Shown piece by piece: positions 1 to 22,462 of a DNA stretch of 64,000 nt. Position numbers and translations under genes: made by a program. This DNA comes from Candidatus Sericytochromatia bacterium (lineage in GTDB: Bacteria; Cyanobacteriota; Sericytochromatia; UBA7694): NCBI GenBank assembly GCA_044356335.1, contig JBIKWL010000007.1:271-64270 (forward strand). The letters are read 5' to 3'. Each line of letters begins with the position of its first letter. Position 1 is the stretch's first letter. The notes beneath the pieces were generated by a model that saw nothing but the letters and a program-made list of their open reading frames with translations, did no database searches and was not told the DNA's origin.

Positions 1-152
1 GTCAAAATCTGGCTCAAAATGCGGGTGTTGACCTGATCATCAGACTCAGTTCAGAACCCAGTTCAGACGGAAACGTCCTTCAGATTCAAACCTACCAGAA
101 ATCACAGGCTAAGATCCAGAATTTTCACACCCCCCCCTTACCCCTAGATAAT

Positions 153-1523: not shown

Positions 1524-1550
1524 ACTGATTGAATAAAAAAGGAAAAAAAC

Positions 1551-3503: not shown

Positions 3504-3517
3504 GCATTTTAAGCCGT

Positions 3518-5102: not shown

Positions 5103-5121
5103 TTCTGTTCTCCGGCATGAA

Positions 5122-5793: not shown

Positions 5794-5809
5794 ATTTATT
5801 AGACCCCTT

Positions 5810-7510
5810 TCAGTTCAGACGTTCTAAATTTTTTTTATAAAGATCAGTGGGAAACAAAGTTATTGCTGTTTTTAATAAGCTGATTGCTTTTTCTTTTTTT
5901 GAGTTTCTCCAAGCGTAGGCGACAGAATTAAGTAAGTCAGCCAAAATTTCTTTTTGTTGTTGATCGAGTTGGTTTTTGCGATTGGGAGAATATTTCAACG
6001 CCTGCTCAACATTGTCTAAACATTCCTGAAATTTTTCCTTGTCACGCCATTCTCCAGCCCGATTTATAAAAATATTAATCAGATTTTTTCGCGCTTCATT
6101 TTGTTTTGGATCTTTATCTAAAACCTGTTGAAAAGTTTCTATCGAGGCATTGTGGTGACCCGATGCATAGAGTTTATCTGCTTTTATAAGCAACGCTTTA
6201 ATCGCTGCTTGGGAAAAATTCAGAGTAATAGATTTTTCAAGGCTATTTTGGCCTCTTTTAAGTGTTAATTTTTCTTTATATGTATCAAAATTCTGAAGAC
6301 TGATTTCAAGCGTGTAATCCCCTGATCTGAAAACAACTTCTTCACCTGTTTTTAATGGTTTATCGCCCAATTTAATTTTGGCATTGATCGGATGGCTGTT
6401 GATTTTGACTGTGACGTGTGCTTGTTTTTCTTGATAATCCCAATAAATCATGCCGGTTCCCCCGAGCAACATCAAAGCCAGAAAACCACCCATCAGATAG
6501 ACAGGCAGCTTCATTTTTTTTGTTTCTTGGATGGGGGCTTCATTCCGCAATTTTAATTGACTGGTTTCGAGTAAATCTGTTGTTTGCGGTAATTTACCAG
6601 ATCCATATGAGGCTATTTCAGTTAAGGGCTTGGTATCGCGCCGCATCGCAAGGATTAATTCTCGGGCAGTTTGATAGCGCTGTTCCGGCGATTTGGTCAG
6701 CAGTTTTAAGACAATCCCCCGACATTCAGGGCTGAGGTCAGGTTTGAGCAACTTGGGGTCAGGAGGCGCTTCTTGAATATGCTTTAAGGCAACTGCAATT
6801 TCACTTTCACCTTGAAAGGGAAGTTCCCCAGTCAGCATCTGAAACATCAAAACGCCTAAGGAATAAAGATCAGAACGCTCATCCGCTTTTTTTGCATCCT
6901 GGGCCTGTTCTGGAGACATATACAGCGCTGTTCCCATTTGAGTTCCGGTCTGGGTCAAATGGCTTGCTCCCAAGAGGTTTTTCGCAATCCCAAAATCGAG
7001 TAAATAGGCGTGGGCAAAGCGATCCAGCATAATATTCGCGGGTTTGATATCGCGGTGAACAACCCCCCGGCTGTGGGCATATTCCAGGGCGCGGGTTACT
7101 TGGGCCAAAATATCCAAGACCATTTCTTCAGGTAAAGCCCCTTCATCATGAATCAATTCAGACAAAGAACGGCCTTCAATTAATTTCATCGTGAAAAAGA
7201 TGCGTTCAGGTTCCTGAACAATTCGGTAGATCGGAATAATATGGGCATGTTCTAACTGAGCCGCTCTGCGTGCTTCAGCCAAGAATCGCAAAACAAAATC
7301 TGGATTGTGGCAGAGTTCAGGCTTTAAGAGTTTAAGTGCCTCTTCGCGCTCCAAATCAAGATTTGTGACCCGGTAAACCTCTCCCATGCCACCCGCTTGC
7401 AAAAAGCCTTCTACGCGATACCCAGAGAGTTGCTCATGAAGCTTGAGTTGGTGCCGCATCGCTAATGTCCCAGTATAAAAGCCATGATCGCTTTTCCATT
7501 GCTGTTCCAA
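5810..7510 (-). CDS. Hanks-type Ser/Thr protein kinase, single TM, C-terminal TPR-like domain
   Basis: 'LQAGGMGEVYRV' is the Gly loop; 'HRDIKPANIML', 'DFGIAK' and 'MSPEQ' are also present. A TM segment 'LMGGFLALMLLGGTGMIY' follows. The alternative start at 7459 (MRHQLK..) would abut rather than overlap the upstream peptidase gene. Confidence 0.8.
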   Translation of the reverse strand: MEQQWKSDHGFYTGTLAMRHQLKLHEQLSGYRVEGFLQAGGMGEVYRVTNLDLEREEALKLLKPELCHNPDFVLRFLAEARRAAQLEHAHIIPIYRIVQEPERIFFTMKLIEGRSLSELIHDEGALPEEMVLDILAQVTRALEYAHSRGVVHRDIKPANIMLDRFAHAYLLDFGIAKNLLGASHLTQTGTQMGTALYMSPEQAQDAKKADERSDLYSLGVLMFQMLTGELPFQGESEIAVALKHIQEAPPDPKLLKPDLSPECRGIVLKLLTKSPEQRYQTARELILAMRRDTKPLTEIASYGSGKLPQTTDLLETSQLKLRNEAPIQETKKMKLPVYLMGGFLALMLLGGTGMIYWDYQEKQAHVTVKINSHPINAKIKLGDKPLKTGEEVVFRSGDYTLEISLQNFDTYKEKLTLKRGQNSLEKSITLNFSQAAIKALLIKADKLYASGHHNASIETFQQVLDKDPKQNEARKNLINIFINRAGEWRDKEKFQECLDNVEQALKYSPNRKNQLDQQQKEILADLLNSVAYAWRNSKKEKAISLLKTAITLFPTDLYKKNLERLN

Positions 7511-8526
7511 GCGGCAGGTCCAGCTTGATCTGCCGTTTCCAAAGTCACAAGGGGAATTCCTCTTTCCTGGCCATAATAGGTGCCAAAAGAGCCTGGTGTG
7601 GGATACCCAATTTCACCTTTTGCTGGTAAGCCATTGTATTGACTCATGAGTTTGGCCCACGCTTCTGAAGCGGCACCATCATAATTATTCATCGCCAAGG
7701 GGGCGTGGATCGACAAAATCCGTGTTTCCCCAAGCTGAATGATCCGATCTACCGTCCTCTGTATGGCCTGGCTTTCGGGTTCGGAGAGTGGACTTTTACC
7801 TGAATAATAGCGCGTGCCTTTTTTATTGCCAGGGATAAAATTTCGGGTGGGAAAGTTTCGATTCAAATCCACACCGGCCCCATTGGGGCGGGTTCCTCTG
7901 GCTAAGCCATCAGGGTTTACGATCGGAATCAGGTAGACCGTTTGGTCTGTATAGAGTTTCGGAGACTTATCCAAAGTTGATTGGACTTGCTGCATGATAT
8001 AAGCGATCGGAAGCTCATCTCCATGAAATGAACCCAATACAATAACCTGTTCCCCGTTGCCAGAACCATATTGGTAGAGTTTTATCGGGCGACCCTCTCT
8101 GCTTGTTCCAATCTCTTTTGATAATTTCTTTGGCGCAATCTTTGGCGCAATCGGTTGGATTTTCTGTTTTGGAGAATGGCCGGGGCTTGTCGCTTCGAGA
8201 GAGGATTGAGCTTGGGGGGCCTCGGTTGCCTCTGGCGTAGGTGAATCGGTTTGATCTGGGGGTTGATTATCGGGCTGCTCAGGGGGTTGAGGTGAGTTCG
8301 ATTCGAATCCGTCACTCTGTTCAGATTCGTGATCGGCACTCCCCAGTACAATTGTGCTACTTTCCTGACTGCTCGGCATGCTGGACGGTTGCTGAGTTGC
8401 TGAATCATTCGCAACACTCCCAATTTCCAGTTGATTGGCAGTGTTCAAACGCGACACCCCAAAATAGGAAAGAACCATCAGGCCAGCAGCAAGAGTCAAA
8501 ACGATAGGAAGTGATTTATTGTTCAT
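7462..8526 (-). CDS. M14-family (MpaA-like) zinc peptidase with Pro/Gln-rich N-terminal low-complexity region
   Basis: 'VIVLGSFHGDELP' is an HxxE motif. It is paralogous to the N-domain of 3518..5102 ('NRNFPT', 'YPTPGSFGTYYG' and 'TLET' are shared). TM/signal at the N-terminus. Confidence 0.6.
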   Translation of the reverse strand: MNNKSLPIVLTLAAGLMVLSYFGVSRLNTANQLEIGSVANDSATQQPSSMPSSQESSTIVLGSADHESEQSDGFESNSPQPPEQPDNQPPDQTDSPTPEATEAPQAQSSLEATSPGHSPKQKIQPIAPKIAPKKLSKEIGTSREGRPIKLYQYGSGNGEQVIVLGSFHGDELPIAYIMQQVQSTLDKSPKLYTDQTVYLIPIVNPDGLARGTRPNGAGVDLNRNFPTRNFIPGNKKGTRYYSGKSPLSEPESQAIQRTVDRIIQLGETRILSIHAPLAMNNYDGAASEAWAKLMSQYNGLPAKGEIGYPTPGSFGTYYGQERGIPLVTLETADQAGPAAWNSNGKAIMAFILGH

Positions 8527-8617
8527 ACTTTTCTCTCAAATTGGATAATGAACCCATTTATATTAACATATTTGTTTCTATGACTTAAGGTTTAATCAAT
8601 AGGAATTCTGGACGCAC

Positions 8618-9388
8618 TCATTTGGGAACTTTGGGCTGAGCGGGCATTTTCTTTATCGCCTGAATTCTGAGCTGCGGTGAATCATGGGTACTTAAAAAAT
8701 CGCCAAGACTCTCAGCATTTGAATGATTGGAAAATGGCTTTATCAAGTTTTCTAGCAAACGAATTGCATCATTTCGGGAGTATCCAGCTTTCTCCATCAA
8801 AGTGACTCCATAAATATCAGCTTTTCTCTCCTGTTCTTTGTTAAATGGAAGCCGAGAGAGGCTATAAACCAACTGAACCCCCTCAGCCAGCACAGGATCA
8901 ACTTTTGCAACGCGGGCACTGTATTGAACGCGGTGTGCACAGTGCAAAAGCTCTTGATGAGCCAGTTCATGCCCAAGCAGTGCAGCGATCAATCCTTCGG
9001 ATTGCAGGTATTTTAAAATTCCCTGATGAATCAAAATTTTTCCGCCAACAAAGGTAAAGGCGTTCGGCGTAGTGTCGTCAATCAAAAAAAGTTCATAAGC
9101 CAAATCCTGTTGTTTTAAATACGGCTTCAGCCGCTGAAGAACACGTACCCAACGCAGATCATTCAAGACACGAATCGATTTTTCCTGCTTATATGTTTGA
9201 AGAATCTGAGCGCCTATTTGGTTTTGTTCGGCTTGGCTCAAGCCTGTCAGATGCAAAATTTCGTCATTCATACGCTCCGTATATTCAAGACCCTCTTTAA
9301 ATAGGTCAAAGGGGTCAGGCAAATTTTGGTTGCTTGCCGATAGGGGGTAATACATAAAAAATATCAAGCTGGCCCAAATCTTAAACAC
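8618..9388 (-). CDS. M48-family zinc metallopeptidase (HExxH)
   Basis: Signal peptide. 'LLGHELAHQELLH' is an HExxH motif. Size and layout resemble BepA/YfgC-like peptidase domains. Confidence 0.55.
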   Translation of the reverse strand: MFKIWASLIFFMYYPLSASNQNLPDPFDLFKEGLEYTERMNDEILHLTGLSQAEQNQIGAQILQTYKQEKSIRVLNDLRWVRVLQRLKPYLKQQDLAYELFLIDDTTPNAFTFVGGKILIHQGILKYLQSEGLIAALLGHELAHQELLHCAHRVQYSARVAKVDPVLAEGVQLVYSLSRLPFNKEQERKADIYGVTLMEKAGYSRNDAIRLLENLIKPFSNHSNAESLGDFLSTHDSPQLRIQAIKKMPAQPKVPK

Positions 9389-9457
9389 GGAGTCCCCGAC
9401 CTCCCTCTGAATTCATGATCGAGTGGTATTAACAATATTTTAACTTAAATCAACTAA

Positions 9458-9473
9458 TTGTCAATATTGACAA
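9458..9473. promoter_or_regulatory. Perfect 16-bp palindrome TTGTCAATATTGACAA in divergent promoter region; half-site copy TTGACAAT at 9517..9524
   Basis: Read directly from the sequence in the 168-bp AT-rich intergenic region between the divergent M48 peptidase gene and the LDT/kinase operon. Confidence 0.4.
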
Positions 9474-9556
9474 TATAGTTTACAAATGTTAATTTTTTAA
9501 TGGGCTTGAATTTTAATTGACAATTTGCCCACACGAAATCCTGAAAGGATGCCAGC

Positions 9557-10192
9557 ATGAAATTGAATCTTAAACGTGTTGTGTGCTTGGGTATGATGAT
9601 GTCTGGTTTTTGGCAAGCCTCTCCCGTTCTCGCATTTAGTCAGGAAGATATTTGGAAAACGATTCGACCCAGCGTCGAAAAATTAAGCTCAGAATTTGGC
9701 TTAAAACAAAACCAATACGCATTAATTGTTGTAGTGCCTCATCAAAAAATGTATTTGATTCAAGGCCAAAAAATAATTAAATCTTATCGGATCTCAACGG
9801 CCAGCGCTGGAATTGGATCGATAGAAAACAGCGATATGACTCCCCCAGGAACACACCGAATCAAAGAAAAAATTGGCGCAGGTCATAAAATGGGGGCTAT
9901 CTTTAAAGGCCGTAAATTTACCGGTCAACACAGCCCCATTTATAAAGATCTGACAGACCTTTCAGAAGATTTAATAACCACCCGTATTCTATGGCTAGAT
10001 GGACAGGAAAATGGCGTAAACAGAGGTGGAATCCGAGATTCTCATCGCCGTTACATTTACATTCATGGAACACCAGAAGAAGGCCAATTGGGCAAACCCA
10101 ACTCAAAAGGCTGTATTCGGATGGGAAATAAAGAAGTAATTGAACTCTTTCAAATGATCAGCAGTGGAACTTTAGTTGAAATTCAAGAGTGA
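9557..10192 (+). CDS. L,D-transpeptidase (YkuD domain), secreted
   Basis: Signal peptide. 'YIYIHGTPEEGQLGKPNSKGCIRMGNKEV' is the His/Cys catalytic motif of the YkuD family. Confidence 0.75.
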   Translation: MKLNLKRVVCLGMMMSGFWQASPVLAFSQEDIWKTIRPSVEKLSSEFGLKQNQYALIVVVPHQKMYLIQGQKIIKSYRISTASAGIGSIENSDMTPPGTHRIKEKIGAGHKMGAIFKGRKFTGQHSPIYKDLTDLSEDLITTRILWLDGQENGVNRGGIRDSHRRYIYIHGTPEEGQLGKPNSKGCIRMGNKEVIELFQMISSGTLVEIQE

Positions 10193-10195
10193 GCA

Positions 10196-11287
10196 ATGAG
10201 TAAACGTCCCCACCTTGCGAATAGATTAATATTTCCAAGTCGAGCCTTTTCTGGCTGTTTATTGTCTTTATCGCTCATGGGTTTCTATTTGCTTGTTCAA
10301 ATCCCTCAAGATCCTGGCTTCGCGCTGACCCAGACATTTTTCGGGCTCAAAAAGGAGCCTTTAAAAGCTGTTCTTAATACATCCCCTCCGCCATCGCCCA
10401 AAAAAATCAATCTTCAAAACCCCAAAATTATTTGGCAATTGCAAAGAAAAATTTTACTTGACCAACAATTGGCGCGATTGGCAGAGCAATTTAACTTGGT
10501 CTCAGCAGGAATTATGTTGTTGGATTTAAACACAGGAAACTATGGTGGATACCAAGAAAAAAAAGTCTTCGAATCTGCAAGCTTGGTTAAACTCCCTATT
10601 ATGCTGGGAGGCATGCGTGAAATCTACCAGGGAAAGGCAAAAATTGAAGATATTATTCAAATTGATAGCCAAAATATGACAACAACCGCATGGTTTGCCA
10701 AAGATCCCTTTCCTGAATTAACCCCAGGAAAACAGGTGCGTTTAGAGCATTTATTTGAAGTGATGATCAGTCGCAGTGACAATATTGCAACCAATACGCT
10801 TTTAGATATTTTTAATCGTCAATCTATCAATGACTATATTCATAACCTGAGTTTTAGGCAAACAGAAGTGGCCTACAAAATTACGGGTTCAGATCATTTA
10901 TTTTGGGATGGCGACTACGTGAGTGGCATCAATCAATCAAGTGCATGGGATATGGGGCGAATGCTAAGCCTTGTGGTTAGAGAAAAAATACTGGATTCAG
11001 AAAGCTGCATTTTGATGATGGAATGGCTTAATCATCAACAGGATAAAACCAAGCTGGCAGCAAAATTACCTGCCAAAACTTATATCGCTCATAAAACGGG
11101 TGAAAATAGCCGTGGAACTCATGATGTTGCAATCATCAAATCACCCAATCATCAGTATACTTTGGCAGTCTTAACTCCTTATCCGGCCGATGAAGCGCTT
11201 TATCAGAGAATTTCTAATTTATCCCGCTCAATTTATGATTTGATTCATGCTCGACCCTCGTTGTTCCAGGAAATATACGCCTCATGA
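10196..11287 (+). CDS. Class A beta-lactamase-like serine hydrolase (SxxK, SDN, KTG motifs)
   Basis: 'ASLVKLP' is SxxK, 'SRSDNIATN' is SDN and 'AHKTGEN' is KTG. N-terminal TM/signal. A 3-nt gap separates it from the upstream LDT. Confidence 0.65.
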   Translation: MSKRPHLANRLIFPSRAFSGCLLSLSLMGFYLLVQIPQDPGFALTQTFFGLKKEPLKAVLNTSPPPSPKKINLQNPKIIWQLQRKILLDQQLARLAEQFNLVSAGIMLLDLNTGNYGGYQEKKVFESASLVKLPIMLGGMREIYQGKAKIEDIIQIDSQNMTTTAWFAKDPFPELTPGKQVRLEHLFEVMISRSDNIATNTLLDIFNRQSINDYIHNLSFRQTEVAYKITGSDHLFWDGDYVSGINQSSAWDMGRMLSLVVREKILDSESCILMMEWLNHQQDKTKLAAKLPAKTYIAHKTGENSRGTHDVAIIKSPNHQYTLAVLTPYPADEALYQRISNLSRSIYDLIHARPSLFQEIYAS

Positions 11288-12663
11288 GTCTCCTGGAACA
11301 GGGTGAAGTAATTGGCATTTACAAAATTGTGCGCCATTTGGCTTCTGGAGGAATGGGAGACCTTTATGAGGTTTATAATTCTCAATTAGATCGCAATGAG
11401 GCCATGAAAGTTTTAAAATCCGATTTATCTGAGCAAAAAGATTTTGTTCTCCGCTTTACGGGCGAAGCACGCAAGCACGCACGTCTCGATCATCCAAACA
11501 TCGTGCCTGTTTATCAGATCAGTGACCCAGAAACACGCCCAGTTTATTTCACAATGAAATTGATTCAGGGTCAAACGCTGAAAGATTGGTTTAAAAACCA
11601 ATTGCCACTTTCAGAAGATATAGCTGCCCAGCTTATGTTGCAAATAACAGATGCGTTGGTATATGCCCATAGTTTGGGCATTATTCACAGAGACCTCAAA
11701 CCCGCCAATCTTATGTTAGATCAAGATCACCGCTTGTATCTGATGGATTTTGGCATCGCCAGAGTTGCTCAGGATACCCATCTGACCATGACAGGAACCC
11801 AGATGGGAACAGCCGCTTATATGAGTCCAGAACAAGCCCAAGATGCAAAATCTGTTGATGCCCGCTCAGATCTGTATTCCCTGGGTGTCATCTTCTTTGA
11901 AATGCTGACTGGCCAAACCCCTTTTCAAAGCGATAGCGCCATCGCATTGGCCCTAAAACATGTGCAAGACCCTCTGCCTGATCCCAAAAAACTGAATCCT
12001 TCTTTATCAAAAGAAACCATTCAATTGGTAAGTTTTTTGTTGGAAAAAGCGCCTTCAAAACGACCCGATAGTTCACAATCATTTCGAAATTTGCTTAAAC
12101 ACCGGTTTTCTTTGCAGACGGGTCAACTTGATCTCAATCAAACAATGATTCAGAAACCGATGTTTTCAACCACAAAAGCTGAATCAAAGCATCTTGCTGC
12201 CCCAATTTGGGTTGGCAGTCTGTTATTACTTTTGGGAATCGGGGTGAGCCTGATATTTTGGGGTGCATCGCAAAATCAGACACAGGAGGTCAGTCATTCT
12301 CCTTCGCCAACAGCTCCTCTCCAACAAGAACAAATACCCCCAGTTCAAGCCCCTCTACCCACCGCAGTCTCGACTCCAAGGATTGAAAAATCACCGATTC
12401 ATGGCTTATATCCCCATACCAGTTATCAGCCTGTTACAGAAGAAGAATTAATTCCGATGAATTGCAATGACCTGGCGATCATGCGAAATGAAATTTATGC
12501 CCGTCATGGCCGCCAATTTTCGACACCCAGTTTTCGGGAGTATTTTAAATCTCAAGATTGGTATCAAGTGGACCCAAATTACAGCGACAACCGTGTCACT
12601 GCTCTGGAAAAACGCAATGCCAGTCTGATTCTCAATCATGAAGAACAAAATGCCTGTTTTTAG
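11284..12663 (+). CDS. Hanks-type Ser/Thr protein kinase with TM segment and C-terminal extracytoplasmic YARHG domain
   Basis: 'LASGGMGDLYEV', 'HRDLKPANLML', 'DFGIAR' and 'MSPEQ' mark the kinase. TM segment 'IWVGSLLLLLGIGVSLIFW'. The C-terminus 'MRNEIYARHGRQFSTPSFREYFKSQDWYQ' is a YARHG domain. An ATGA overlap joins it to the upstream gene. Confidence 0.8.
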   Translation: MSLLEQGEVIGIYKIVRHLASGGMGDLYEVYNSQLDRNEAMKVLKSDLSEQKDFVLRFTGEARKHARLDHPNIVPVYQISDPETRPVYFTMKLIQGQTLKDWFKNQLPLSEDIAAQLMLQITDALVYAHSLGIIHRDLKPANLMLDQDHRLYLMDFGIARVAQDTHLTMTGTQMGTAAYMSPEQAQDAKSVDARSDLYSLGVIFFEMLTGQTPFQSDSAIALALKHVQDPLPDPKKLNPSLSKETIQLVSFLLEKAPSKRPDSSQSFRNLLKHRFSLQTGQLDLNQTMIQKPMFSTTKAESKHLAAPIWVGSLLLLLGIGVSLIFWGASQNQTQEVSHSPSPTAPLQQEQIPPVQAPLPTAVSTPRIEKSPIHGLYPHTSYQPVTEEELIPMNCNDLAIMRNEIYARHGRQFSTPSFREYFKSQDWYQVDPNYSDNRVTALEKRNASLILNHEEQNACF

Positions 12664-12676
12664 TTAAAGGTTAATT

Positions 12677-13585
12677 ATGAGTAAAAATATGAATTTAATA
12701 TTATTAATCGGCTCAAGTCTCATTATTTCAGCGGGTTTGGGTTATGGTGTTTATCAACTCATGCCGTTTGGGGCTGATCGCCGCTCAGAAACGAGTTCAC
12801 ACGAATCTCTTAACAACGTTCTTGGATCTGTTCCCTCTCCAACCCCTACAGAGCCCAATATTATCACTGTGGGAGATAATGACAATCTAAATCAGCCAGT
12901 AGAATCAACACCATCGGCCACTGTTTTTAAGTCAGCGCTTGTTTCATCAATTAAAACCGCTGTTCCAGAAGAATCTAATTTTAAACAATTTCCGTTTAGT
13001 TGTGATCAATTTGAAAACCAAATAATTCAAGACCCCAAGTATCAACGTGATCTCGCGATCTGGAAACCCCAAATTACGTCATACAGTTCTCGCCATTATG
13101 GTGAACCCACCTGGAAACTTGATCCCAGTGTCATTGTGCTTCACTATACAGTGGGAACCTCTTTCCCTTGGAATTTGGTAAATACGCTAAATTTTGCTGG
13201 AGAAACCCCAGGTTTATCCGTTCACTATGTGGTGGATGGACCCAAAATTTGGCGACTATTGCCAGATAATGTCCGATCACGGGGTGCCTATGGCATTAAC
13301 CACCGGGCTATCAATATTGAAATGATTGCGCTCGAAGAAAAAGATCTTTTTCAAAATCGAAAACCAACTTTGGATAAATCAGCAGAATTGGTCGCGTGCC
13401 TGATGCAGTGGCATAAAATACCAATAAAAAAAATCTATTCACATGAAGACGTTAGCAAAATGAATCCCAAAATTGTTCCTGAAGTTTTTGATTTGGTCCA
13501 ATCTGGGGCCTATGGCAAATCGGATCCGGGTGAATTGAATATGGCGTATGTACTCAATAAACTGAAACTCTGGGGCCTCAATTAA
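12677..13585 (+). CDS. N-acetylmuramoyl-L-alanine amidase, Amidase_2 (AmpD/PGRP-like) domain, membrane-anchored
   Basis: N-terminal TM. 'VIVLHYTVGT...SVHYVVDG...AYGINHRAINIEM' is typical of Amidase_2. Confidence 0.6.
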   Translation: MSKNMNLILLIGSSLIISAGLGYGVYQLMPFGADRRSETSSHESLNNVLGSVPSPTPTEPNIITVGDNDNLNQPVESTPSATVFKSALVSSIKTAVPEESNFKQFPFSCDQFENQIIQDPKYQRDLAIWKPQITSYSSRHYGEPTWKLDPSVIVLHYTVGTSFPWNLVNTLNFAGETPGLSVHYVVDGPKIWRLLPDNVRSRGAYGINHRAINIEMIALEEKDLFQNRKPTLDKSAELVACLMQWHKIPIKKIYSHEDVSKMNPKIVPEVFDLVQSGAYGKSDPGELNMAYVLNKLKLWGLN

Positions 13586-14991
13586 TGGGAAATCAACTTA
13601 AAAATCCATCCATCATTGTAAATTTCCTTTTTTGTTTGTTTATTTTATTCAGTACTTCTTCTGTTTCTTTTGCACAAGAATCGGTGAGCGCCATAATAGA
13701 ACTTAAAAATTCGCCAGATGTCTATCACAACCGGCCCGTCAGAATCAAAGGCCGAATTGTTGAAACTCAAATTGCCCCCAGAGGTTTGACAACCGGTCAT
13801 TATATTATTGAAGACAATACTGGGCGTTTGCCCGTACGTACCTCTAAACTGCCAGCTCCCAACGAATTGGTAGAAGTCTGGGGACAATTACTGAAAGATC
13901 AAGATGAACCTTATTTCATGCATATTCATGAAAATAAGCGCTGCTGCCCTGAATTTGATCCCTCAAATACTGGAAAAAGCAAAAGCAAGGAAGAAAAAAC
14001 AGAAAAGAAAGAAACTGAAAATCCTTTTAAAGATTTATCTCCAACAGTACTGATCGGATTGGGCTTAATTGTATTATCGATTATTGGCCTCATCGTCTTT
14101 TTAGTGCTTAAATCAAATCAGAAAAAACAACTGTTGTTAAAACAGGAAAATGAACGGCGCGATTCCGAGCAAAAAAGACGTGAAGTTTTAATGATGCGTA
14201 TGCAACAGGGGGGGGCTACAGGCGCATCTGATCAAACGCTTGTTCCGGGCCAAAACAACAGAGCAGGCTCTATCGGAGACGCTACCACAGTGGGCTATCC
14301 TGTCGGAAAGCTGGTCGTAATGGAAGGGCCTGAACAAGGAAAATCATATTCTGTGATGGCCCCCAAAACGATAATCGGAAAACAATCAGGATTGGGTGGC
14401 GTATTAAATCAATCTCAGGATCCACTTATCAGTAAAGTTCACGCAGAAATTCTTGCCACAGCATTTGGCAATTGCACTCTGGTAGATAAACAAAGTCGCA
14501 ACGGTACCCGTCTGAATGGACATCCCGTTTCTGAGACCGCGCTGAATGAGAACGATTTGATCGAAATTGGGAACAGCAAACTAAAATTCAGCTTGGTTTC
14601 AGCGAATCATTCTCCCCCCAAAACAGATTCAGCCCATTCAGGTATAGATGATAAAACAGTCATACGCAACGTAAATGAGCAGGCGACAATCGTTCGACGG
14701 CTCCCCAGTCTTGAAATCCTGATTGGACCCGATCAAGGAAAAATAGCCCGGATGGTTAAACAACGTTGGCTGGTTGGTAGAAGCAAAGAGGCGGATCTGG
14801 TTCTCTCGGATACCACCGTTTCGCGACAACAATTTAGCTTGGAGTTGCGTGGCGAACACATTTATCTTATTCCACTCAGCGAGCAGGTACCCATTCAAGT
14901 CGAAGACCAAGTGATCAGCACAGAAACCCTACTTGAAGACAAAGCTGAAATCAGCTTTGGAGATACCCGACTGCGTTTTTTGAAAGGATAG
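13585..14991 (+). CDS. Membrane protein with periplasmic OB-fold (BOF-like) domain and two cytoplasmic FHA domains
   Basis: Signal peptide, then an OB-like segment (RPVRIKGRIVE...HYIIEDNTG), then TM 'VLIGLGLIVLSIIGLIVFLVL'. Two FHA-like segments follow ('IGKQSGL...NGTRLNGHPV' and 'VGRSKEADLVLSD...'). The start overlaps the upstream stop (TAATG). Confidence 0.6.
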   Translation: MGNQLKNPSIIVNFLFCLFILFSTSSVSFAQESVSAIIELKNSPDVYHNRPVRIKGRIVETQIAPRGLTTGHYIIEDNTGRLPVRTSKLPAPNELVEVWGQLLKDQDEPYFMHIHENKRCCPEFDPSNTGKSKSKEEKTEKKETENPFKDLSPTVLIGLGLIVLSIIGLIVFLVLKSNQKKQLLLKQENERRDSEQKRREVLMMRMQQGGATGASDQTLVPGQNNRAGSIGDATTVGYPVGKLVVMEGPEQGKSYSVMAPKTIIGKQSGLGGVLNQSQDPLISKVHAEILATAFGNCTLVDKQSRNGTRLNGHPVSETALNENDLIEIGNSKLKFSLVSANHSPPKTDSAHSGIDDKTVIRNVNEQATIVRRLPSLEILIGPDQGKIARMVKQRWLVGRSKEADLVLSDTTVSRQQFSLELRGEHIYLIPLSEQVPIQVEDQVISTETLLEDKAEISFGDTRLRFLKG

Positions 14992-14995
14992 AAGT

Positions 14996-16636
14996 ATGAG
15001 CAATGCCTATTTTTTAAATGTAGCAGGGCTGAGCGATGTCGGTCAAAAACGCAATAACAATGAAGATGCTTATACACATTGCTCGAACCCTCAGATCATG
15101 GACGGGCATATTGCGGGCATGCTGGTTGTTTCTGATGGTATGGGGGGGCATGCCGCCGGAGAGGTTGCAAGTAACTTAACGACGACGCATTGGAATCAAT
15201 ATTGCCAAGAATTAATGTTACAGGCCTTGGACAAAGATGAGTTGGAATCTGCTGTTAAACATGGCGTCGTGGAATTACACCGGCGGGTTTTGGATTATGC
15301 AGACAAAAATAACAAAATGGGCATGGGCTGTACTTTTGTTTCCGCACTTTTACACAATCAAGAAGTACTGATCTCAAATGTAGGAGACTCTGGCGCTTTT
15401 CTCTGTCGCGATTCTCAGTGTGAATCGATTTATACCAGTGACAATGAGTTAGAGCGTTTATTGCAACAGGGAAAAATAACGCCTGAGATGGCTGCAAACT
15501 CCGCATTTAAAAGTCATTTGATGCAGGCCATTGGCTATCATGGAGAAGTTGAACCCCATACCTGTTTTCGACGCGTTTATAACGGAGATCGTCTGTTGCT
15601 CTGCTCAGACGGACTCACCGCACACGTTTCTCCACACGAATTCGCTGAAATTCTCTCTGGTTTTCCTGAAGACCGTGAAGCTGCTACCTATTTGATAAAA
15701 CTCGCGAATCAAAGGGGCGGGACCGATAATGTCACTGTGATTGTCGCAACTGTCGCGGGCTCTGCAACGGCCCCGCGTAAAATGGTGTTTAAACCTCAAC
15801 CCATAAAATCCAAAAACCATGGGGAATCTAAATTTTCAATGCATTGGCTTTTAGCTGCCTCGATTATTTTACTCGGAGTTGGCATAGGCATCACTGCGGG
15901 AGCAATGAAACCTTTTCGAAAAAATCAACCCATGACAGCAAAGACGCCAAAGCCACAAGTCTCACAAATGGAAAGCCCTCAAGCCACAAATCTCCCAGCT
16001 TTGAATGAACAGGTAATTTCGTCGCCAGAAACCGCAAATACTCAGCTTGAACAAAATGAAACCGCTTATCTAGAAGATTTCGGACGCAATAAAGACGGTT
16101 ATAAGCTTGAACTCAATCTAAATCTCAATACCGGAAAATATGAGATTTCAGCTCATCCACCTGGGGTTTTGAAATTACTGACGTTTAAAACTCAGCAGGG
16201 ATTGACCGATGTTCCCTTTGATCGCTTAATTATTCCGCCAGAAGATATTAAACCGAATACAAAAGTTTTAACTCAACTGATTTTAAGAGTTCAACGCACT
16301 CAGTCAAATTATTCATTGGTGGTTGAACCTCCTCGTGAAGTCATCATCAACAAACGCTCTCAAAATGTGCTTCAAAATTACTCATTCCCCCTCAATCAAC
16401 CCGCAAATACAAGAATGGGTTTGTATTTGATTAGAGAAAATACCAGAGCTTATCCCTTTATTATTACAAACGTATTTGCTCCTTTTCATAATACAAGCGT
16501 ACAAACAAACCAGAATTTGGATGTCTCTAAAAATGACAGATTTCAAAAGAAAAGAGGCATTCGTGGTGATTTTTCAGTTCAGTTTAATGAGCCAGATATA
16601 AATAGTAATCTAGAGCTTAAAGCTGGCAAGCGATGA
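14996..16636 (+). CDS. PP2C-family Ser/Thr protein phosphatase with TM segment and C-terminal extracytoplasmic domain
   Basis: 'GLSDVGQKRNNNEDAY', 'VVSDGMGGHAAGE' and 'GGTDNVTVIVA' are PPM motifs. TM segment 'WLLAASIILLGVGIGITAG'. Confidence 0.8.
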   Translation: MSNAYFLNVAGLSDVGQKRNNNEDAYTHCSNPQIMDGHIAGMLVVSDGMGGHAAGEVASNLTTTHWNQYCQELMLQALDKDELESAVKHGVVELHRRVLDYADKNNKMGMGCTFVSALLHNQEVLISNVGDSGAFLCRDSQCESIYTSDNELERLLQQGKITPEMAANSAFKSHLMQAIGYHGEVEPHTCFRRVYNGDRLLLCSDGLTAHVSPHEFAEILSGFPEDREAATYLIKLANQRGGTDNVTVIVATVAGSATAPRKMVFKPQPIKSKNHGESKFSMHWLLAASIILLGVGIGITAGAMKPFRKNQPMTAKTPKPQVSQMESPQATNLPALNEQVISSPETANTQLEQNETAYLEDFGRNKDGYKLELNLNLNTGKYEISAHPPGVLKLLTFKTQQGLTDVPFDRLIIPPEDIKPNTKVLTQLILRVQRTQSNYSLVVEPPREVIINKRSQNVLQNYSFPLNQPANTRMGLYLIRENTRAYPFIITNVFAPFHNTSVQTNQNLDVSKNDRFQKKRGIRGDFSVQFNEPDINSNLELKAGKR

Positions 16637-18609
16637 AAACTTGGCAAATCAATCAGACTCTCCAAATCGGCCGTTCTCCAGACAATCAGATCTGTTTGCC
16701 TCACGCTTTGGTTTCTCGCGCGCATGCTCGGATCACCATCAACAATGATCAAATTCAACTCGAAGATAGCAGCGCGAACGGTACCTTCGTTAACGGAGCA
16801 CGGGTGAGCGGTTCGGTTGTTCTAAAAGAACAAGACCTGATTCATATCGGTCCGTTTCGGCTTAGCTTAAACCAGAAGCAGCTCTCTCTTGATACGGCCG
16901 AAGGCCAAGGGCAGGTGCGTCTGGATGCGGTCAATATTCGTCTGGATGCTAGCGGCGGGAAAACTCTTCTGAATCAAGTCTCAGTGCATATACCTGCAGG
17001 ACAAGTCACGGCGCTTTTGGGGGCCAGTGGCGCAGGAAAATCTACCTTACTCAAAGTTTTAGCAGGATTTCTACCCCCTACAAGCGGTGATGTTTTTTTT
17101 AATGGCGAACCCATGTCGGTAAATTATCAAGCATTTCGTTCAAGTGTTGCCTTTGTACCCCAGGACGATATCATTCATCCTATGCTCAGTGTCGAAGAAG
17201 CTTTGAACTATGCCTCACGTTTGCGTTTGCCTGAAGATCTGACCCCCCTTGAGCGTTCACAACAAATAGACAATGTGCTATTTCAACTTGAGTTAGAACC
17301 CTTTCGGCATACTTTGGTCAAAGCGCTCAGTGGGGGACAGCGAAAACGTGTTAGCATTGGCGTCGAACTACTCAGTCAACCCCATCTCTTGATTCTGGAT
17401 GAACCCACCTCAGGTCTCGACCCGGGTCTTGAAAAGTATATGATGGAACAGTTTCAGACGATGAGTCGACAAGGAAAAACCATTCTCGTTACAACCCATT
17501 ATGTAAAGCACCTCGATCTATGTGATCAAATCGTGATTCTGGCCCCTGGCGGACACTTGGTATTTGCTGGCCCTCCCCGCAAAGCCTTAAGTTACTTCCA
17601 ACTTAGTGATTACGCAGATATCTATCGTTTACTTGAATCTCAATCCCCAGATATACTTTCGACCCGTTTTGAAGCCAACCCGCTCTATCTTCAACACATC
17701 GTGCATCCGCAACAAAATTTACTCCAAAGAGAGACAAAGGTTCTGCGCAAAGAAATTCGTCAAGATCGCTCACTGGGGCGCTGGACGCGTCAATTAATAA
17801 TTTTGACACAGCGCTATCTGCATATCTTAATGAGAGAAGGAGCGACTGTCGCTGGACTTCTTCTTCAAGCCCCTTTGATTGTTGTTTTACTGTGGCTAAC
17901 TTACCATCAGAATCTCTTTGACTTAGGCCCCCTCGATGCTCCCAATTTTGACTTTATTCAATCGCCATCTTTGCTTTTTTTTATGGTCTGTTCTGCACTC
18001 TGGTTTGGTATTTCAAATGCCACCCAGGAGATCATTCGGGAGTTTCCAATCTTTGCACGTGAGCGATTAATCAACCTGCATCTCTCTACTTATATTTTAT
18101 CCAAATATCTGGTTTTGGGATTTTTTTGCTTAATTCAATGTCTCGCCTTGCAGATCGGTTTGGGGCTGTGGTTTAAAGTCCCCCAAGTTTTTGAACCCGG
18201 CTTTTTTCTGATTCTTTATCTTACGGCACTTTGTGGTCAGGGGATTGGGTTTTGTCTTTCAGCCTGGTCTGATAGTGCCCTCAAAGCCATGAGTATTTTA
18301 CCTTTGGTGCTGATTCCACAGATTATGTTTTCGGGTTCGATTGTACCCGTGTCTGAAATGCCCAAAGCCAGTCAAGCAATCAGTCAGGTTACAGTCTCGT
18401 ATTGGGCCTATCAAGGATTGGGAAATCTAACCCAAATTTCTGATGAAAAGCTGGAAAGCCATGGTCAGGTGATTCTGGCTTTGCCAGAAACCGTTCGCAA
18501 TGAATTTAAGCACCATTCATTTCAAAAAACCGGTCTCAGCCTCTCACTTTGGTGTTTGTTTTTCTATTCTCTTTGCCTCATTTTATTGGGGCGCAGACGA
18601 TTGGTCTAA
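16633..18609 (+). CDS. FHA domain - ABC transporter fusion (ATPase + ABC-2 type permease)
   Basis: The N-terminal FHA is 'IGRSPDNQICLPHALVSRAHARI...NGTFVNG'. 'GASGAGKST' is Walker A, 'LSGGQRKRVSIG' the ABC signature and 'LILDEPTSGLD' Walker B. A C-terminal 6-TM permease follows. ATGA overlap with the PP2C gene. Confidence 0.8.
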   Translation: MKTWQINQTLQIGRSPDNQICLPHALVSRAHARITINNDQIQLEDSSANGTFVNGARVSGSVVLKEQDLIHIGPFRLSLNQKQLSLDTAEGQGQVRLDAVNIRLDASGGKTLLNQVSVHIPAGQVTALLGASGAGKSTLLKVLAGFLPPTSGDVFFNGEPMSVNYQAFRSSVAFVPQDDIIHPMLSVEEALNYASRLRLPEDLTPLERSQQIDNVLFQLELEPFRHTLVKALSGGQRKRVSIGVELLSQPHLLILDEPTSGLDPGLEKYMMEQFQTMSRQGKTILVTTHYVKHLDLCDQIVILAPGGHLVFAGPPRKALSYFQLSDYADIYRLLESQSPDILSTRFEANPLYLQHIVHPQQNLLQRETKVLRKEIRQDRSLGRWTRQLIILTQRYLHILMREGATVAGLLLQAPLIVVLLWLTYHQNLFDLGPLDAPNFDFIQSPSLLFFMVCSALWFGISNATQEIIREFPIFARERLINLHLSTYILSKYLVLGFFCLIQCLALQIGLGLWFKVPQVFEPGFFLILYLTALCGQGIGFCLSAWSDSALKAMSILPLVLIPQIMFSGSIVPVSEMPKASQAISQVTVSYWAYQGLGNLTQISDEKLESHGQVILALPETVRNEFKHHSFQKTGLSLSLWCLFFYSLCLILLGRRRLV

Positions 18610-18692: not shown

Positions 18693-19109
18693 ATGAGGTT
18701 TTATTTCTGCGTGAATTTTAAAAATATATATTTATTCATATTTTCGCTTGTTTTTTCTGTAAATCTTAATTTTTCCGCTTTGGCCTACGACTATGAGCAA
18801 GTTGAAAGAGTTCGATTTGCCAGGGGAAAATCAGGAACCGTACTTCAAGGTTCTGTTGTGCGCCTGACAAGAAACATCTACGTCTTGGGAGCGGCAAAAG
18901 GCCAAATGATGACCGTTCGCATCCGTTCGTTAGAAAATAATGCAGTGATACAAATTATGGATCCCAAAGGCAGAACACTTAAAGGTGGAGGAGAAAATGA
19001 AGATATCACTTATTGGAAAGGACGCTTACCCTTAAACGGCGATTATCGAATCGCCGTAGCGGCCACCCGGGGAAATGCAAGTTATGAGTTGGAAGTGTCG
19101 ATCCGTTAA
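18693..19109 (+). CDS. Small secreted hypothetical protein
   Basis: Signal-peptide-like N-terminus. No motif recognised. Confidence 0.4.
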   Translation: MRFYFCVNFKNIYLFIFSLVFSVNLNFSALAYDYEQVERVRFARGKSGTVLQGSVVRLTRNIYVLGAAKGQMMTVRIRSLENNAVIQIMDPKGRTLKGGGENEDITYWKGRLPLNGDYRIAVAATRGNASYELEVSIR

Positions 19110-19327: not shown

Positions 19328-20056
19328 TCAGGACATAAAGTCAAAAGCCAATTGCTTTACTTCAGCATTATTGGTCTTGGGAGTGCACGAAAAATCGTTT
19401 AATACGGCCAAATAGTCTTTCCGATTCTGAAGACATCCCAGCAAGCCCCGCCTTTTTAAAGCCAAAAACAGAGCGGCAGAGTGGGCTTGGCAATTCAGAG
19501 AGCGAGTGGGATTAAACTCAATATCTGTAAAGGCCTCAAATTCATCCAATTGGATCTTGTTTTGCAGCAAGGCTTGTAAATAGATCCAGTCATAAAAGGC
19601 TGTAGTCGGCTCTAACGGCCAGTCTTCGTCTTCAAGTTGAAATCGAATCAATGGACCCGAAGTTTGCAAACGCACATCTTTGCGTGCTTCGCGTGAATTG
19701 AATAGATACAAATCTTTGAAAGGGCCGCCATTTTGAAAAACTTTGCTGGCCTGAAAAATGACCTCAATGGGCCATTTCCCCTGACTGAGTTGCAAAGATA
19801 AGTGAAAGGCACTCAGTTGCATACCCAAGATTCGCTGAGACTTACTCGAGATTTCTAAGATAGGGTTGAGCTTTAATTGAGTCTGGGCAGCAGCATGGAA
19901 GGCGGCGACTGAACGCTGTTTTTGGGCAATCGAAAAGCCCGGAAACCAATTAAATTCGACCATGACGGTTTTGACCAATTGGTTGGGATCCGAAGAAGGA
20001 AGAAAGATCGGACGCTGAGCCATAATGTGCCTCTTTATGCTTGCCACTTTTGGCAA
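19328..20056 (-). CDS. Hypothetical protein; candidate cognate partner (antitoxin?) of the DarT-like gene, no macrodomain motifs seen
   Basis: Its start overlaps the 3' end of the upstream DarT-like ORF by 22 nt on the same strand. No GGG(V) or macro signatures and no recognisable family. Confidence 0.4.
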   Translation of the reverse strand: MPKVASIKRHIMAQRPIFLPSSDPNQLVKTVMVEFNWFPGFSIAQKQRSVAAFHAAAQTQLKLNPILEISSKSQRILGMQLSAFHLSLQLSQGKWPIEVIFQASKVFQNGGPFKDLYLFNSREARKDVRLQTSGPLIRFQLEDEDWPLEPTTAFYDWIYLQALLQNKIQLDEFEAFTDIEFNPTRSLNCQAHSAALFLALKRRGLLGCLQNRKDYLAVLNDFSCTPKTNNAEVKQLAFDFMS

Positions 20057-20601
20057 TGAATCAAAAATTCAGGGGGAACGCGACGCAAGACCAGAATTTC
20101 AGCTTGAAACCTTTTGAAGTCTTGTCTTGGGCCTTTTTTTAGATCTTGAAACAAGTCATAGCGAATTTCTTGTAAGCCCAATGCGCCTTTAAAGAAGCGG
20201 GTATGTCTATCCAAAGAGTTGTGAGTACTGACCAGAAATTCTTTTTGCAGGTTTAAAACTGCGGGATGAATTTCAATTTTCCAAAGATCAAGTTCGGGAT
20301 GGGCATTTTTGGCTGAATAAACCATGGGGTATTGATCATGAAATCCCAAATGCAAATATTTGTCATGGTTCATAGCTTTTTCTGCCTGTCGAGAGCTGGG
20401 GAGACTTATGTAAGCTGCAACCTTGAGCCGATTCTGTGCAAGTAGGCGGGGGCTTAAAATACCCAATTTGAAAATGCTGTCTAAATTTCGGCGATCCGTA
20501 ATATGCCAAAGAGATTTTACACCCTTAGCTTTTAAATAGGGAACAGGATCCTGTGCAGTCGTTGGGGATGCGTTGATTGGCGTTTCATTTATACCCAGCA
20601 T
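20035..20601 (-). CDS. DarT-like (DUF4433) ssDNA ADP-ribosyltransferase toxin candidate
   Basis: The N-terminal 'SLWHITDRRNLDSIFKLGILS' resembles the DarT/DUF4433 'YHITHxxNLxSIL..G.L.S' start. The C-terminal 'FQAEILVLRRVP' resembles the DarT 'AE(F/L)LV' segment carrying the catalytic Glu. Size 188 aa. Confidence 0.55.
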   Translation of the reverse strand: MLGINETPINASPTTAQDPVPYLKAKGVKSLWHITDRRNLDSIFKLGILSPRLLAQNRLKVAAYISLPSSRQAEKAMNHDKYLHLGFHDQYPMVYSAKNAHPELDLWKIEIHPAVLNLQKEFLVSTHNSLDRHTRFFKGALGLQEIRYDLFQDLKKGPRQDFKRFQAEILVLRRVPPEFLIHCQKWQA

Positions 20602-20747
20602 TCAATTCAGCCTCCGTTCAATTCTATTGATGCGAGCTTAAGCTGAGGCTTTCGTGAGCAGGTGTCAAAAAACAGAGGGATTTAAAGTCTCTGTCTGAGC
20701 GGGTATACTTGATTACACGTTGAATACATCAGAACTGGAACAAGGGT

Positions 20748-21239
20748 GTGTTAAAACTTTTCTTTGCTTTTTCGCTTTTGGCGCTTAGCCTACTTTCTGG
20801 CCCTCGTCTGGCCTTGGCGGATTTTACGCCCATGGATGGGAAAATCACCCGCGTTTTAAATGGCGATACAATTCAGTTTAAATTCAAAAAACACAGTTTT
20901 CGTTTGCAACTGTATGGCATTGATGCCCCCGAGGAAGGCCAACCCCAAGCTTTGGCTGCCAAAAAATACTTGGAAAATTTGGCCTTGCTCAAACCCGCCC
21001 ATGTCCAGGTTTTATCCAAAGACCTCTACAAACGCTATATCGCCAAAGTGACCCTTTCGTCTCAGATCGATTTGAGTCAAGAAATGGTCAAGGCGGGTTA
21101 TGCTTGGTGGTACCGCAAATATGCCCCCAATCAGACCACATTAAAAGAGTTAGAAGCCCTGGCCAAAAAGCAGAAATTGGGCATTTGGAAAGATGCAACC
21201 CCCACTCCTCCCTGGGAGTTCAGAGAACACACCCGCTAG
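20748..21239 (+). CDS. Secreted staphylococcal-nuclease (SNase/thermonuclease) homologue
   Basis: Signal peptide. 'VLNGDTIQF...LQLYGIDAPEEGQP...KRYIAKV...GYAWWYRKY' follows the SNase layout. Confidence 0.7.
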   Translation: MLKLFFAFSLLALSLLSGPRLALADFTPMDGKITRVLNGDTIQFKFKKHSFRLQLYGIDAPEEGQPQALAAKKYLENLALLKPAHVQVLSKDLYKRYIAKVTLSSQIDLSQEMVKAGYAWWYRKYAPNQTTLKELEALAKKQKLGIWKDATPTPPWEFREHTR

Positions 21240-21253: not shown

Positions 21254-22321
21254 TTAGGGGCAAGTCGCTTGACAGGCTTCGTCGTGGCTCAGTTCACAGG
21301 CCTTGGCAAAATCTGCCTTGGCCTTGGAGCAATCACCCTGGGCTTTTTCAATCTGGGCGCGATGAAACCAGGCCCACCGAAAGTCTGGACGCAATTGAAT
21401 TGCCTGGTTGAGATCCTCTAGGGCTTGAGCTGTTTGGCCTTGCTTAAAAAAAGTCCATCCGCGGGTGCTGTAAGCGACGGCATAAGTGAGGTCTAAAGCG
21501 ATGGCTTGATTCGAATCGGAAAGGGCCTCTGGCCATTTGTTTTGGGCCTGATACACCAAGGCACGGTTGTTGTAAGCCGCCACATAGCGATTGTCGAGCT
21601 TGAGACAGCGCTCATAATAGGCCAATGCCAAGTCGTAATCCTTTGCTTGGTAGGCTTGATAGCCCACTTTGATCAACGCCGAGGGTTCCATCTTGAGCGC
21701 TTGGAGTGGAAGTCCCCGCAGATTATATTGCATACCAGCCCAAAGCAAGCCAATCCCAATCACCACAAATGCAAGACTCCAACCGGCCAATAAAAGGGGA
21801 TTGCGAGAGATTTTTTCCAACATTTTTAAGGGTTGGGTTTTGCGATGGGTGATTAACGGGGCGGTAATCGGGCGGGAGAGCGTGCCGGTTTGATTTGATT
21901 GGGGCAAAGGCTTAGAAAGCGTCTGTAAATACCATTTTAAGACACTGGGCAATAAGACCAAAGCATGTTGAACTTGCTCTTGGTTAATTTTTTCATCGGT
22001 TTCTTTGGGATGAGCACCATAGGTTCCCAAGCGGTTAAGATGCATCATTGTATCGTAGACACTGTGAGGCAAACCCTTGGATTGATTCAATTGCTGTAAT
22101 TGATTTTGAAGGGGTTGGGTTTTGGGAGCTTTTCCCAATTCTGCAAAATAAATAGCGTGAACCATTTTTTCGAGTAAATGACGTATGAATACGAGAACAA
22201 CGATGGGGTCTTCGTTGGCAAGGATCTTGGCTGCTGTTTCAGCCATGTCAGGCTCTTGCTCTGACAACGTATTGAGCCAAGGCTGAAGTTGTTTGCGCTC
22301 TGATTCCCAATTGACGTGCAT
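21254..22321 (-). CDS. TPR-repeat membrane protein with Cys-rich C-terminal tail (paralogue of 153..1523 tail)
   Basis: TM segment 'LLLAGWSLAFVVIGIGLLWA'. TPR repeats ('YNNRALVY', 'YSTRGWTF'). C-terminus '..KAKADFAKACELSHDEACQATCP'. Confidence 0.6.
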   Translation of the reverse strand: MHVNWESERKQLQPWLNTLSEQEPDMAETAAKILANEDPIVVLVFIRHLLEKMVHAIYFAELGKAPKTQPLQNQLQQLNQSKGLPHSVYDTMMHLNRLGTYGAHPKETDEKINQEQVQHALVLLPSVLKWYLQTLSKPLPQSNQTGTLSRPITAPLITHRKTQPLKMLEKISRNPLLLAGWSLAFVVIGIGLLWAGMQYNLRGLPLQALKMEPSALIKVGYQAYQAKDYDLALAYYERCLKLDNRYVAAYNNRALVYQAQNKWPEALSDSNQAIALDLTYAVAYSTRGWTFFKQGQTAQALEDLNQAIQLRPDFRWAWFHRAQIEKAQGDCSKAKADFAKACELSHDEACQATCP

Positions 22322-22462
22322 GTTAATTTTCCTACCCCATTATATCCGCCGCCTGTCTGGATTCAAAGTATAGTCATTTGCCATTTCCCCCAAAACAAGC
22401 TATCTTGCCTTGGCTGCTAAGCAGCCGCAACACACCCATTTACGAAACACGAGGAACAGAGT

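Follow-up and report, generated by a model that had tools for sequence, protein, structure and literature searches.

The darT-nadar locus

The window analysed here, a stretch of 64,000 nucleotides (nt) from Candidatus Sericytochromatia contig JBIKWL010000007.1, carries on its minus strand a gene for a DarT-like ADP-ribosyltransferase (ART) followed directly by the gene for a partner protein. A sequence-only reading of this DNA had proposed that the two form a non-canonical toxin-antitoxin (TA) pair, in which the toxin gene overlaps by 22 nt the gene for a partner that is neither a macrodomain nor a NADAR protein. The two open reading frames (ORFs) on which this proposal was built both exist on the minus strand, one of 188 amino acids (aa) at 20035..20601 and one of 242 aa at 19328..20056. 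As detailed below, the partner is a NADAR antitoxin, and the locus is very probably a two-gene, minus-strand DarT1-NADAR (DarTG1) TA operon that works by the published DarTG1 mechanism. The operon comprises the following features.

20035..20601, minus strand: darT, the DarT1-type toxin gene; 188 aa from an ATG start, stop codon included; DarT/DUF4433 domain at about residues 29-182
20024..20034, minus strand: the darT-nadar spacer of 11 nt, preceded by the darT stop codon TAA at 20037..20035
20036..20031, minus strand: a Shine-Dalgarno-like AAGAGG that starts with the final two bases of the darT stop codon, extends into the spacer and lies 6 nt before the nadar ATG
19328..20023, minus strand: nadar (darG1), the antitoxin gene; 231 aa from the ATG at 20023, stop codon included; a single-domain NADAR of the DarT1-associated type, a predicted ADP-ribosyl-guanine glycohydrolase
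20602..20747: a divergent intergenic region of 146 nt separating darT from a nuclease gene; a GGAGG about 9 nt before the darT ATG is the ribosome-binding site

The 242-aa version of the partner is the mechanical first-start ORF (19328..20056, minus strand), which begins at a TTG at position 20056. An M-A-x-R-P start at the position of the ATG at 20023 is common to all 20 of 20 aligned NADAR homologues, and the native start of the crystallised NADAR of Geobacter lovleyi (PDB 8BAT) aligns with the MAQRP encoded at this ATG. Moreover, in independent gene calls at three metagenome loci (L001, L002 and L003), nadar begins 11 nt past the darT stop codon. Because the homologue N-termini, the start of 8BAT and the gene calls at three loci agree, we place the start of nadar at the ATG at 20023, which yields a protein of 231 aa and leaves no 22-nt overlap. 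The longer form with its TTG start was rejected on the grounds of the homologue N-termini and the independent gene calls, and the overlap, which arises only from the TTG at 20056, is replaced by the 11-nt spacer. The same 11-nt spacing is found in an Aeromonas DarT1-NADAR locus (L004), and the gene order, with darT upstream and nadar directly downstream on the same strand, recurs in Aeromonas L004, Rhizobium L006, L008 and L010. The promoter of the two genes is presumed to lie in the 146-nt interval 20602..20747.

The antitoxin and the toxin

The partner is matched by the Pfam family PF22397, 'DarT1-associated NADAR antitoxin', with a score of 270 bits and an E-value of 1.4e-80 in an alignment that spans profile positions 1-211 out of 212, and by the crystallised G. 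lovleyi NADAR antitoxin 8BAT with an E-value of 3.3e-60. A word-indexed search returned 4394 homologues. Among the matches listed, 120 out of 120 belong to PF22397, typically with 48-55% identity, and several homologues carry the NCBI name 'DarT1-associated NADAR antitoxin family protein'. The catalytic residues are retained as well: E87, K94 and D167 are invariant columns in an alignment of 20 NADAR sequences (E169 is also listed as catalytic) and correspond by spacing to E88, K95 and D171 of the NADAR of Escherichia coli C7, which are required there for guanine de-ADP-ribosylation and for rescue (PMC11543638). A Pfam scan at E<=1 returned the NADAR-DarT1 family alone and no macrodomain, and an NCBIfam scan of the partner gave no match. 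Thus, the sequence-only reading was correct in seeing no macrodomain in the partner, but its view that the partner is not a NADAR either is overturned by the full-length PF22397 match. With a NADAR as partner, the pair is a canonical DarT1-NADAR pair rather than a novel one. It represents an already described kind of TA and anti-phage system, whose mild novelty lies in its divergent toxin only.

The 188-aa protein is matched by the Pfam DarT family PF14487 over residues 32-180 (E 4.9e-14; 53 bits, with a cut-off of 22.5) and by the PADLOC DarT model (E 2.3e-15), and it scores 30.5 bits against the NCBIfam toxin_DarT equivalog NF048013, far below the cut-off of 150. When a profile made from the window protein and 25 relatives was run against solved structures, it matched the E. 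coli C7 DarT1 structure 8BAQ with an E-value of 1e-32, the Thermosipho DarT-macro fusion 7OMU with 3.6e-21, the Thermus DarT2 structure 7OMV with 5.9e-11 and the Mycobacterium tuberculosis DarT structure 7YK3 with 1.6e-7. An AlphaFold2 model of the toxin, based on a 50-sequence alignment, was predicted with a mean local distance difference test score (pLDDT) of 87.5 and a predicted template-modelling score (pTM) of 0.83. In a Foldseek search of the PDB at E<=1e-3, all 8 of the 8 matches were DarT structures, headed by 8BAQ (E 3.1e-9), with template-modelling (TM) scores of 0.57-0.71; pertussis toxin, cholera toxin and Tpt1/KptA ranked next, with TM-scores of only about 0.35. Because these matches are all DarT structures, the 188-aa ORF belongs within the DarT fold. 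The Foldseek TM-scores (0.59-0.71) do not distinguish DarT1 from DarT2, and the assignment to a subfamily therefore rests on the profile E-values, on the base-coordinating Asn and on the partner. Altogether, the profile, structure and context evidence agree with the earlier proposal of a DarT-like ADP-ribosyltransferase in a TA operon, and the Pfam and Foldseek results place the ORF inside the fold that had been predicted for it.

Schuller et al. 2023 (PMC11543638) identified the ligand-contacting and activity-essential residues of E. coli C7 DarT1, which we compared with the window toxin. The two motifs highlighted by the sequence-only reading are present, LWHITDRRNLDSIFKLGILS as residues 31-50 and QAEILVLRRVP as residues 166-176. 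The latter contains E168 (codon 20098..20100), which is invariant in two homologue alignments and aligns with the mutated catalytic Glu of DarT1, E152. It also contains Q166, the conserved equivalent of the contact residue Q150. The NAD+ ribose contacts H17 and T19 are conserved as H33 and T35 in the motif H33-I34-T35, the essential M71 corresponds to M93, which is invariant in the alignments, and N104, which coordinates the guanine (N2/N3), aligns with N128. The essential R52 probably has its equivalent in R71, and the likewise essential D54 may have its counterpart in E74, which is one residue further from the Arg.

Close relatives of the window allowed us to estimate selection on both genes. 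The ratio of nonsynonymous to synonymous substitution rates (dN/dS) of darT relative to the 87%-identical orthologue in L002 was 0.23, and that of nadar relative to the same locus was 0.10. Both values reflect purifying selection, and we therefore conclude that both genes are maintained.

The two proteins differ in how closely they resemble their families. A HMMER search of 1.84 billion cluster representatives identified 467 relatives of the toxin at E<=1e-3, one of which is more than 50% identical; the next is 32% identical (E 1.4e-13). A word-indexed search with the toxin gave 2 matches only. An orphan status of the toxin was considered on this basis and rejected, since the two-match result reflects the index and HMMER gives 467 relatives. 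Short relatives (173-183 aa) located directly upstream of PF22397 NADARs scored 34-42 bits, long relatives (340-432 aa) located upstream of DUF6939 proteins scored 35-43 bits, and one relative had no called partner. Judged from their sequences, the antitoxin is typical of its family and the toxin is a distant member of its own. This contrast fits the faster divergence of the toxins that has already been reported, with identities of 35-40% among DarT1s versus 48-57% among NADARs (PMC11543638), and it is more pronounced here.

In a separate observation, one homologue, a predicted protein of 418 aa from a JGI data set (P0285), contains both a PF14487 DarT and a PF22397 NADAR domain. It may be a toxin fused to its antitoxin, or else two genes that were merged in the gene call.

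Genomic setting of the pair

The genes that surround the pair in the window are listed below.

20748..21239, plus strand: a staphylococcal-nuclease homologue; 163 aa from a GTG start, PF00565 with E 2.9e-20, signal-peptide-like N-terminus
21254-22321, minus strand: a 355-aa protein that has a DUF4145 domain (E 5.2e-6, with a weak signal for HEPN) at its N-terminus and TPR repeats at its C-terminus
18693-19109, plus strand: an ORF of 138 aa, hydrophobic at its N-terminus and without a Pfam match, located between an ABC transporter gene and nadar
1-18609: a cluster of signalling and cell-wall genes of low guanine plus cytosine (GC) content

The nuclease gene lies 146 nt upstream of darT on the opposite strand and is arranged divergently in L002 and L003 as well. 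Its product is matched by the PADLOC model for a candidate SNc-containing protein (E 4.7e-10), and the dN/dS of the gene was 0.14. The gene pair has a GC content of 43.3%, which compares with 43.0% for positions 1-23000 of the window and 52.9% for the remainder. This bears out the sequence-only description of an AT-rich block beside a secreted nuclease, inasmuch as a nuclease with a signal-peptide-like N-terminus is encoded 146 nt away. The DUF4145-TPR gene adjoins the nuclease-DarT-NADAR genes in L002 too. The 138-aa ORF was called as a gene in the metagenome locus L001, which matches this part of the window with 100% identity, and L002 diverges before it is reached. The signalling genes of the left-hand cluster encode two Ser/Thr kinases (one with a YARHG domain), an FHA protein, a PP2C phosphatase and an FHA-ABC transporter fusion; its cell-wall genes encode two L,D-transpeptidases, two M14 carboxypeptidases, an amidase and a polysaccharide deacetylase, and a class A beta-lactamase-like protein is encoded there as well. 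No defence genes were found among these left-hand neighbours, which are the FHA-ABC transporter and the Ser/Thr-kinase, PP2C and cell-wall enzyme genes.

A glycerate kinase gene located 5 kb away is 87-88% identical to those of metagenome-assembled genomes of Candidatus Blackallbacteria and Candidatus Sericytochromatia, which places the window in this lineage, and comparison with such relatives showed that the presence of the pair varies. The nuclease-DarT-NADAR genes are kept in L002 and L003, which are about 90% identical to the window at the nucleotide level, with amino acid identities of 87% for DarT and 93% for NADAR. The synteny of the window with these two loci stops exactly at the 3' end of the NADAR gene (window position 19338). 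Past this point, L002 encodes RmuC, a Piwi-domain Argonaute, a PIN protein and an SNF2-type helicase, and in L003 only fragments of RmuC and Piwi genes and the C-terminal domain of a helicase are seen. Two GTDB representatives, L013 and L015, are syntenic with the window only down to about position 22374. DarT and NADAR were not found in the fetched flank of this syntenic locus in either of them; instead, L015 carries a TerD/TerD/VWA/VWA set and L013 a Ser/Thr kinase gene and a PIN_3 gene. A scan of the genome contigs with the toxin gave no match, so that the species representatives are without the toxin. The presence of the pair in L002 and L003, its absence from the L013 and L015 locus and the differing cargo indicate that the pair is accessory and resides in a variable hotspot. 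A search of the window for tRNA genes as mobile-element borders found none, and the repeats in the window were short and two-copy only, often chance matches, and none of them brackets the pair. From the repeat and tRNA searches, the left-hand limit of an island could not be placed.

Proposed mechanism, alternative explanations and known systems

The TA and phage-defence functions of DarTG1 have been established experimentally in E. coli (PMC11543638; PMC11825919), and the reversibility of guanine ADP-ribosylation in DNA has been demonstrated for the E. coli C7 and G. lovleyi systems (PMC11543638). A bacteriostatic toxin of this type, acting on guanine in ssDNA and neutralised by its NADAR, and the protection against phage are known from these two only. 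By analogy with these systems, we infer how the present pair would be toxic, which base it would target, how hydrolysis would neutralise it and how it would serve in defence. With NAD+ as its substrate, the 188-aa DarT would transfer ADP-ribose onto a base of the DNA and thereby block replication. Following the example of E. coli C7 DarT1, this base would be guanine, modified at its N2 amino group in single-stranded DNA. The NADAR of 231 aa, co-transcribed with the toxin and translated from a start 11 nt downstream, would protect the host by hydrolysing the bond between ADP-ribose and guanine. Phage infection, again as in E. coli C7 DarTG1, would then tip the balance such that phage DNA becomes ADP-ribosylated and its replication halts. 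The base specificity is the least secure step of this mechanism, as the contacts made by K74 and Y75 are gone, the Asn is also present in a macro-fused DarT, and some NADARs act on cytidine-linked ADP-ribose.

Several observations weigh against a DarT1-NADAR operon of the published type. On the side of the toxin, identities over the full domain reach about 35% at most outside its own cluster, the proteobacterial DarT1s whose genes adjoin those of the closest NADAR homologues attain only about 20 bits against the window toxin, and a pairwise search of the PDB found 8BAQ as the sole relative, over its full length but at a weak E-value of 0.12. In its active site, F18 and F72, which stack on the nicotinamide in DarT1, are replaced by I34 and V94, and K74 and Y75, which contact O6 and N7 of the guanine, are not conserved (S96 and A97). 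The R52-x-D54 pair that serves as proton relay appears as R71-x-x-E74 in a loop that aligns with a shift of 1-2 residues. The macro-fused Thermosipho DarTG has the base-coordinating Asn as well, for which reason N128 is no proof of guanine specificity. On the side of the antitoxin, no model of PADLOC-DB 2.0 recognises the protein, and R114 replaces K115 of the E. coli C7 NADAR at a position where at least 90% of the aligned homologues have Lys. This R114 is shared by the 93%-identical orthologue, the substitution is conservative, and the next residue of the window protein is K115. The E. coli C7 NADAR requires K115 for rescue, whereas its catalysis does not depend on this residue (PMC11543638); K115 is a secondary feature and not one that defines the family. 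Lastly, sigma-70 and terminator consensus scans found no minus-strand promoter in 20602..20747 and no terminator after nadar, but these scans were uninformative overall (3 promoter-like sites versus 3.1 expected, and 0 terminators).

Certain of these observations would be accommodated by other explanations of the locus. The one put forward by the sequence-only reading, that the DarT is paired in a non-canonical way with a new family of ADP-ribosyl-DNA hydrolases or with an unrelated immunity protein, could draw on the lack of a macrodomain match and on the lack of PADLOC and NCBIfam matches for the partner. It is refuted for practical purposes, as the partner is a recognisable NADAR by its 270-bit PF22397 match, its 8BAT match and its 4394 homologues, and keeps the catalytic residues. 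The low Pfam score of the toxin (53 bits) and the replacement of several aromatic residues related to efficiency might suggest that it is a decaying, inactive remnant carried as a passenger beside a functional NADAR. We regard this as highly improbable, since the ORF is intact in three lineages with dN/dS values of 0.19-0.23, E168, M93, N128, H33 and T35 are all retained, and the fold is predicted with confidence. The staphylococcal-type nuclease (20748..21239, plus strand) could in principle be a third functional component of the system. Its divergent adjacency to darT in the window, L002 and L003, its dN/dS of 0.14 and its PADLOC SNc match speak for such a role, but no nuclease is present beside DarT-NADAR in the unrelated loci L004, L006, L008 and L010. 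Moreover, the window, L002 and L003 are close relatives, so that common descent rather than selection may account for the adjacency, and the signal-peptide-like N-terminus suggests that the nuclease is exported away from intracellular DNA. We therefore consider its participation very unlikely.

Two further possibilities concern what the pair does rather than what it is. The divergent toxin might act on another base or in another sequence context (for example, on cytosine or on RNA), with the NADAR reversing this different modification. The loss of K74 and Y75, the replacement of F18 and F72, the different R-D spacing and the much greater divergence of the toxin relative to the antitoxin would all suit such an altered chemistry, as would the removal of cytidine-linked ADP-ribose by some NADARs (PMC12945103). 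Against this, N128 aligns with N104, which coordinates N2 and N3 of the guanine, and the antitoxin falls into the DarT1-associated clade and has the D167 catalytic arrangement of that clade. In addition, DarT1 is reported to bind DNA with otherwise loose specificity, and identities among DarT1s amount to only 35-40% (PMC11543638). Altogether, an altered chemistry seems to us an outside chance, and we attach a similarly small probability to the idea that the Sericytochromatia DarT, as a deep and sparsely sampled branch represented by a single 50%-identity cluster and without the guanine O6/N7 contacts of E. coli DarT1, recognises other DNA or RNA bases or sequences although its partner is a DarT1-type NADAR. 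Somewhat easier to envisage, though still unlikely, is a chromosomal addiction or growth-control TA pair that has no role against phages and stabilises the variable region or regulates replication. The left-hand neighbours in the window are signalling and cell-wall genes, a growth-control role of DarTG has been reported in mycobacteria (PMC12170906), and a role of this kind has been proposed for M. tuberculosis DarTG. However, the presence of the pair varies among relatives of about 90% nucleotide identity, prokaryotic Argonaute (pAgo)/RmuC, PIN and helicase genes adjoin it in two of them, and E. coli DarTG1 defends against phage; the two roles are compatible with each other.

A DarT1-NADAR operon, as favoured here, adds a DarTG1 system to the non-photosynthetic sister lineage of the cyanobacteria, and the locus marks a variable defence hotspot in a Sericytochromatia/Blackallbacteria-like lineage. 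Otherwise, it offers little beyond annotation. As the NADAR is unrecognisable by eye and has no match in PADLOC-DB 2.0, so that Pfam PF22397 is needed to identify it, DarT1-NADAR pairs can pass for orphan or non-canonical DarT genes. The divergent toxin could serve comparative work on the specificity of DarT1, and an altered specificity, if true, would mean a broader range of substrates for DarT1-NADAR systems as a class.

A non-canonical pairing of the kind originally hoped for was encountered elsewhere than in this window. DarT-domain proteins of 340-432 aa with a DUF6939 protein (PF22075) encoded directly downstream are found at L007 (3001-4859), at L012 (3001-4846) and on the P0273 contig; DUF6939 is an uncharacterised DarT partner. 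These partners show a sub-threshold match of 23-25 bits to part of the NADAR-DarT1 model. The loci L007 and L012 adjoin a gene for a DUF2357 protein, and L007 also type I restriction-modification genes. The DarT-DUF6939 pairs resemble the window pair in that their toxins score 35-43 bits, compared with 34-42 bits for the NADAR-linked ones, and in that the partner follows immediately downstream. They differ in their partner, a DUF6939 protein of 186-223 aa, and in the long N-terminal extensions of their toxins. BLASTP of the window partner against a DUF6939 protein gave no match, and its Pfam match is PF22397 only.

The YarT-YbiA pairs of myxobacteria (Cihlova et al. 2024, PMC11125620) also consist of an ART toxin that is neutralised by a hydrolase of the NADAR superfamily. 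According to that paper, YarT has no relationship to DarT and is paired with an antitoxin of the YbiA subfamily, unlike the window pair with its DarT toxin and its antitoxin of the DarT1-associated clade. The DarTG2 systems (DarT2-DarG; Thermus, M. tuberculosis and enteropathogenic E. coli; 7OMV-7ON0, 7YK3) share the ART fold with the window toxin (TM 0.62-0.71) and the TA logic of reversible ADP-ribosylation of DNA bases. Unlike in DarTG2, the window antitoxin has no macrodomain, the toxin stays at 30.5 bits versus the NF048013 cut-off of 150 and has Asn instead of His at the base-coordinating position, and its profile match is about 20 orders of magnitude weaker on DarT2 (5.9e-11) than on DarT1 (1e-32).

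From the DarTG1 systems of E. coli C7 and G. lovleyi (PMC11543638; 8BAQ/8BAR/8BAS and 8BAT), the window pair differs by a toxin that is about 22% identical to 8BAQ in a structural alignment, which is below the 35-40% observed among DarT1s, and by its Sericytochromatia-like host. Compared with E. coli C7 DarTG1 in particular, the toxin lacks K74 and Y75 and has Ile and Val in place of F18 and F72, and the NADAR has R114 in place of K115. The two systems have the same layout, with darT followed by nadar on the same strand after a short spacer. They share a toxin with a DarT-fold ART domain that contains the catalytic Glu, the Met and the base-coordinating Asn, and a single-domain PF22397 NADAR antitoxin that is about 50% identical to its family and retains the E, K and D residues.

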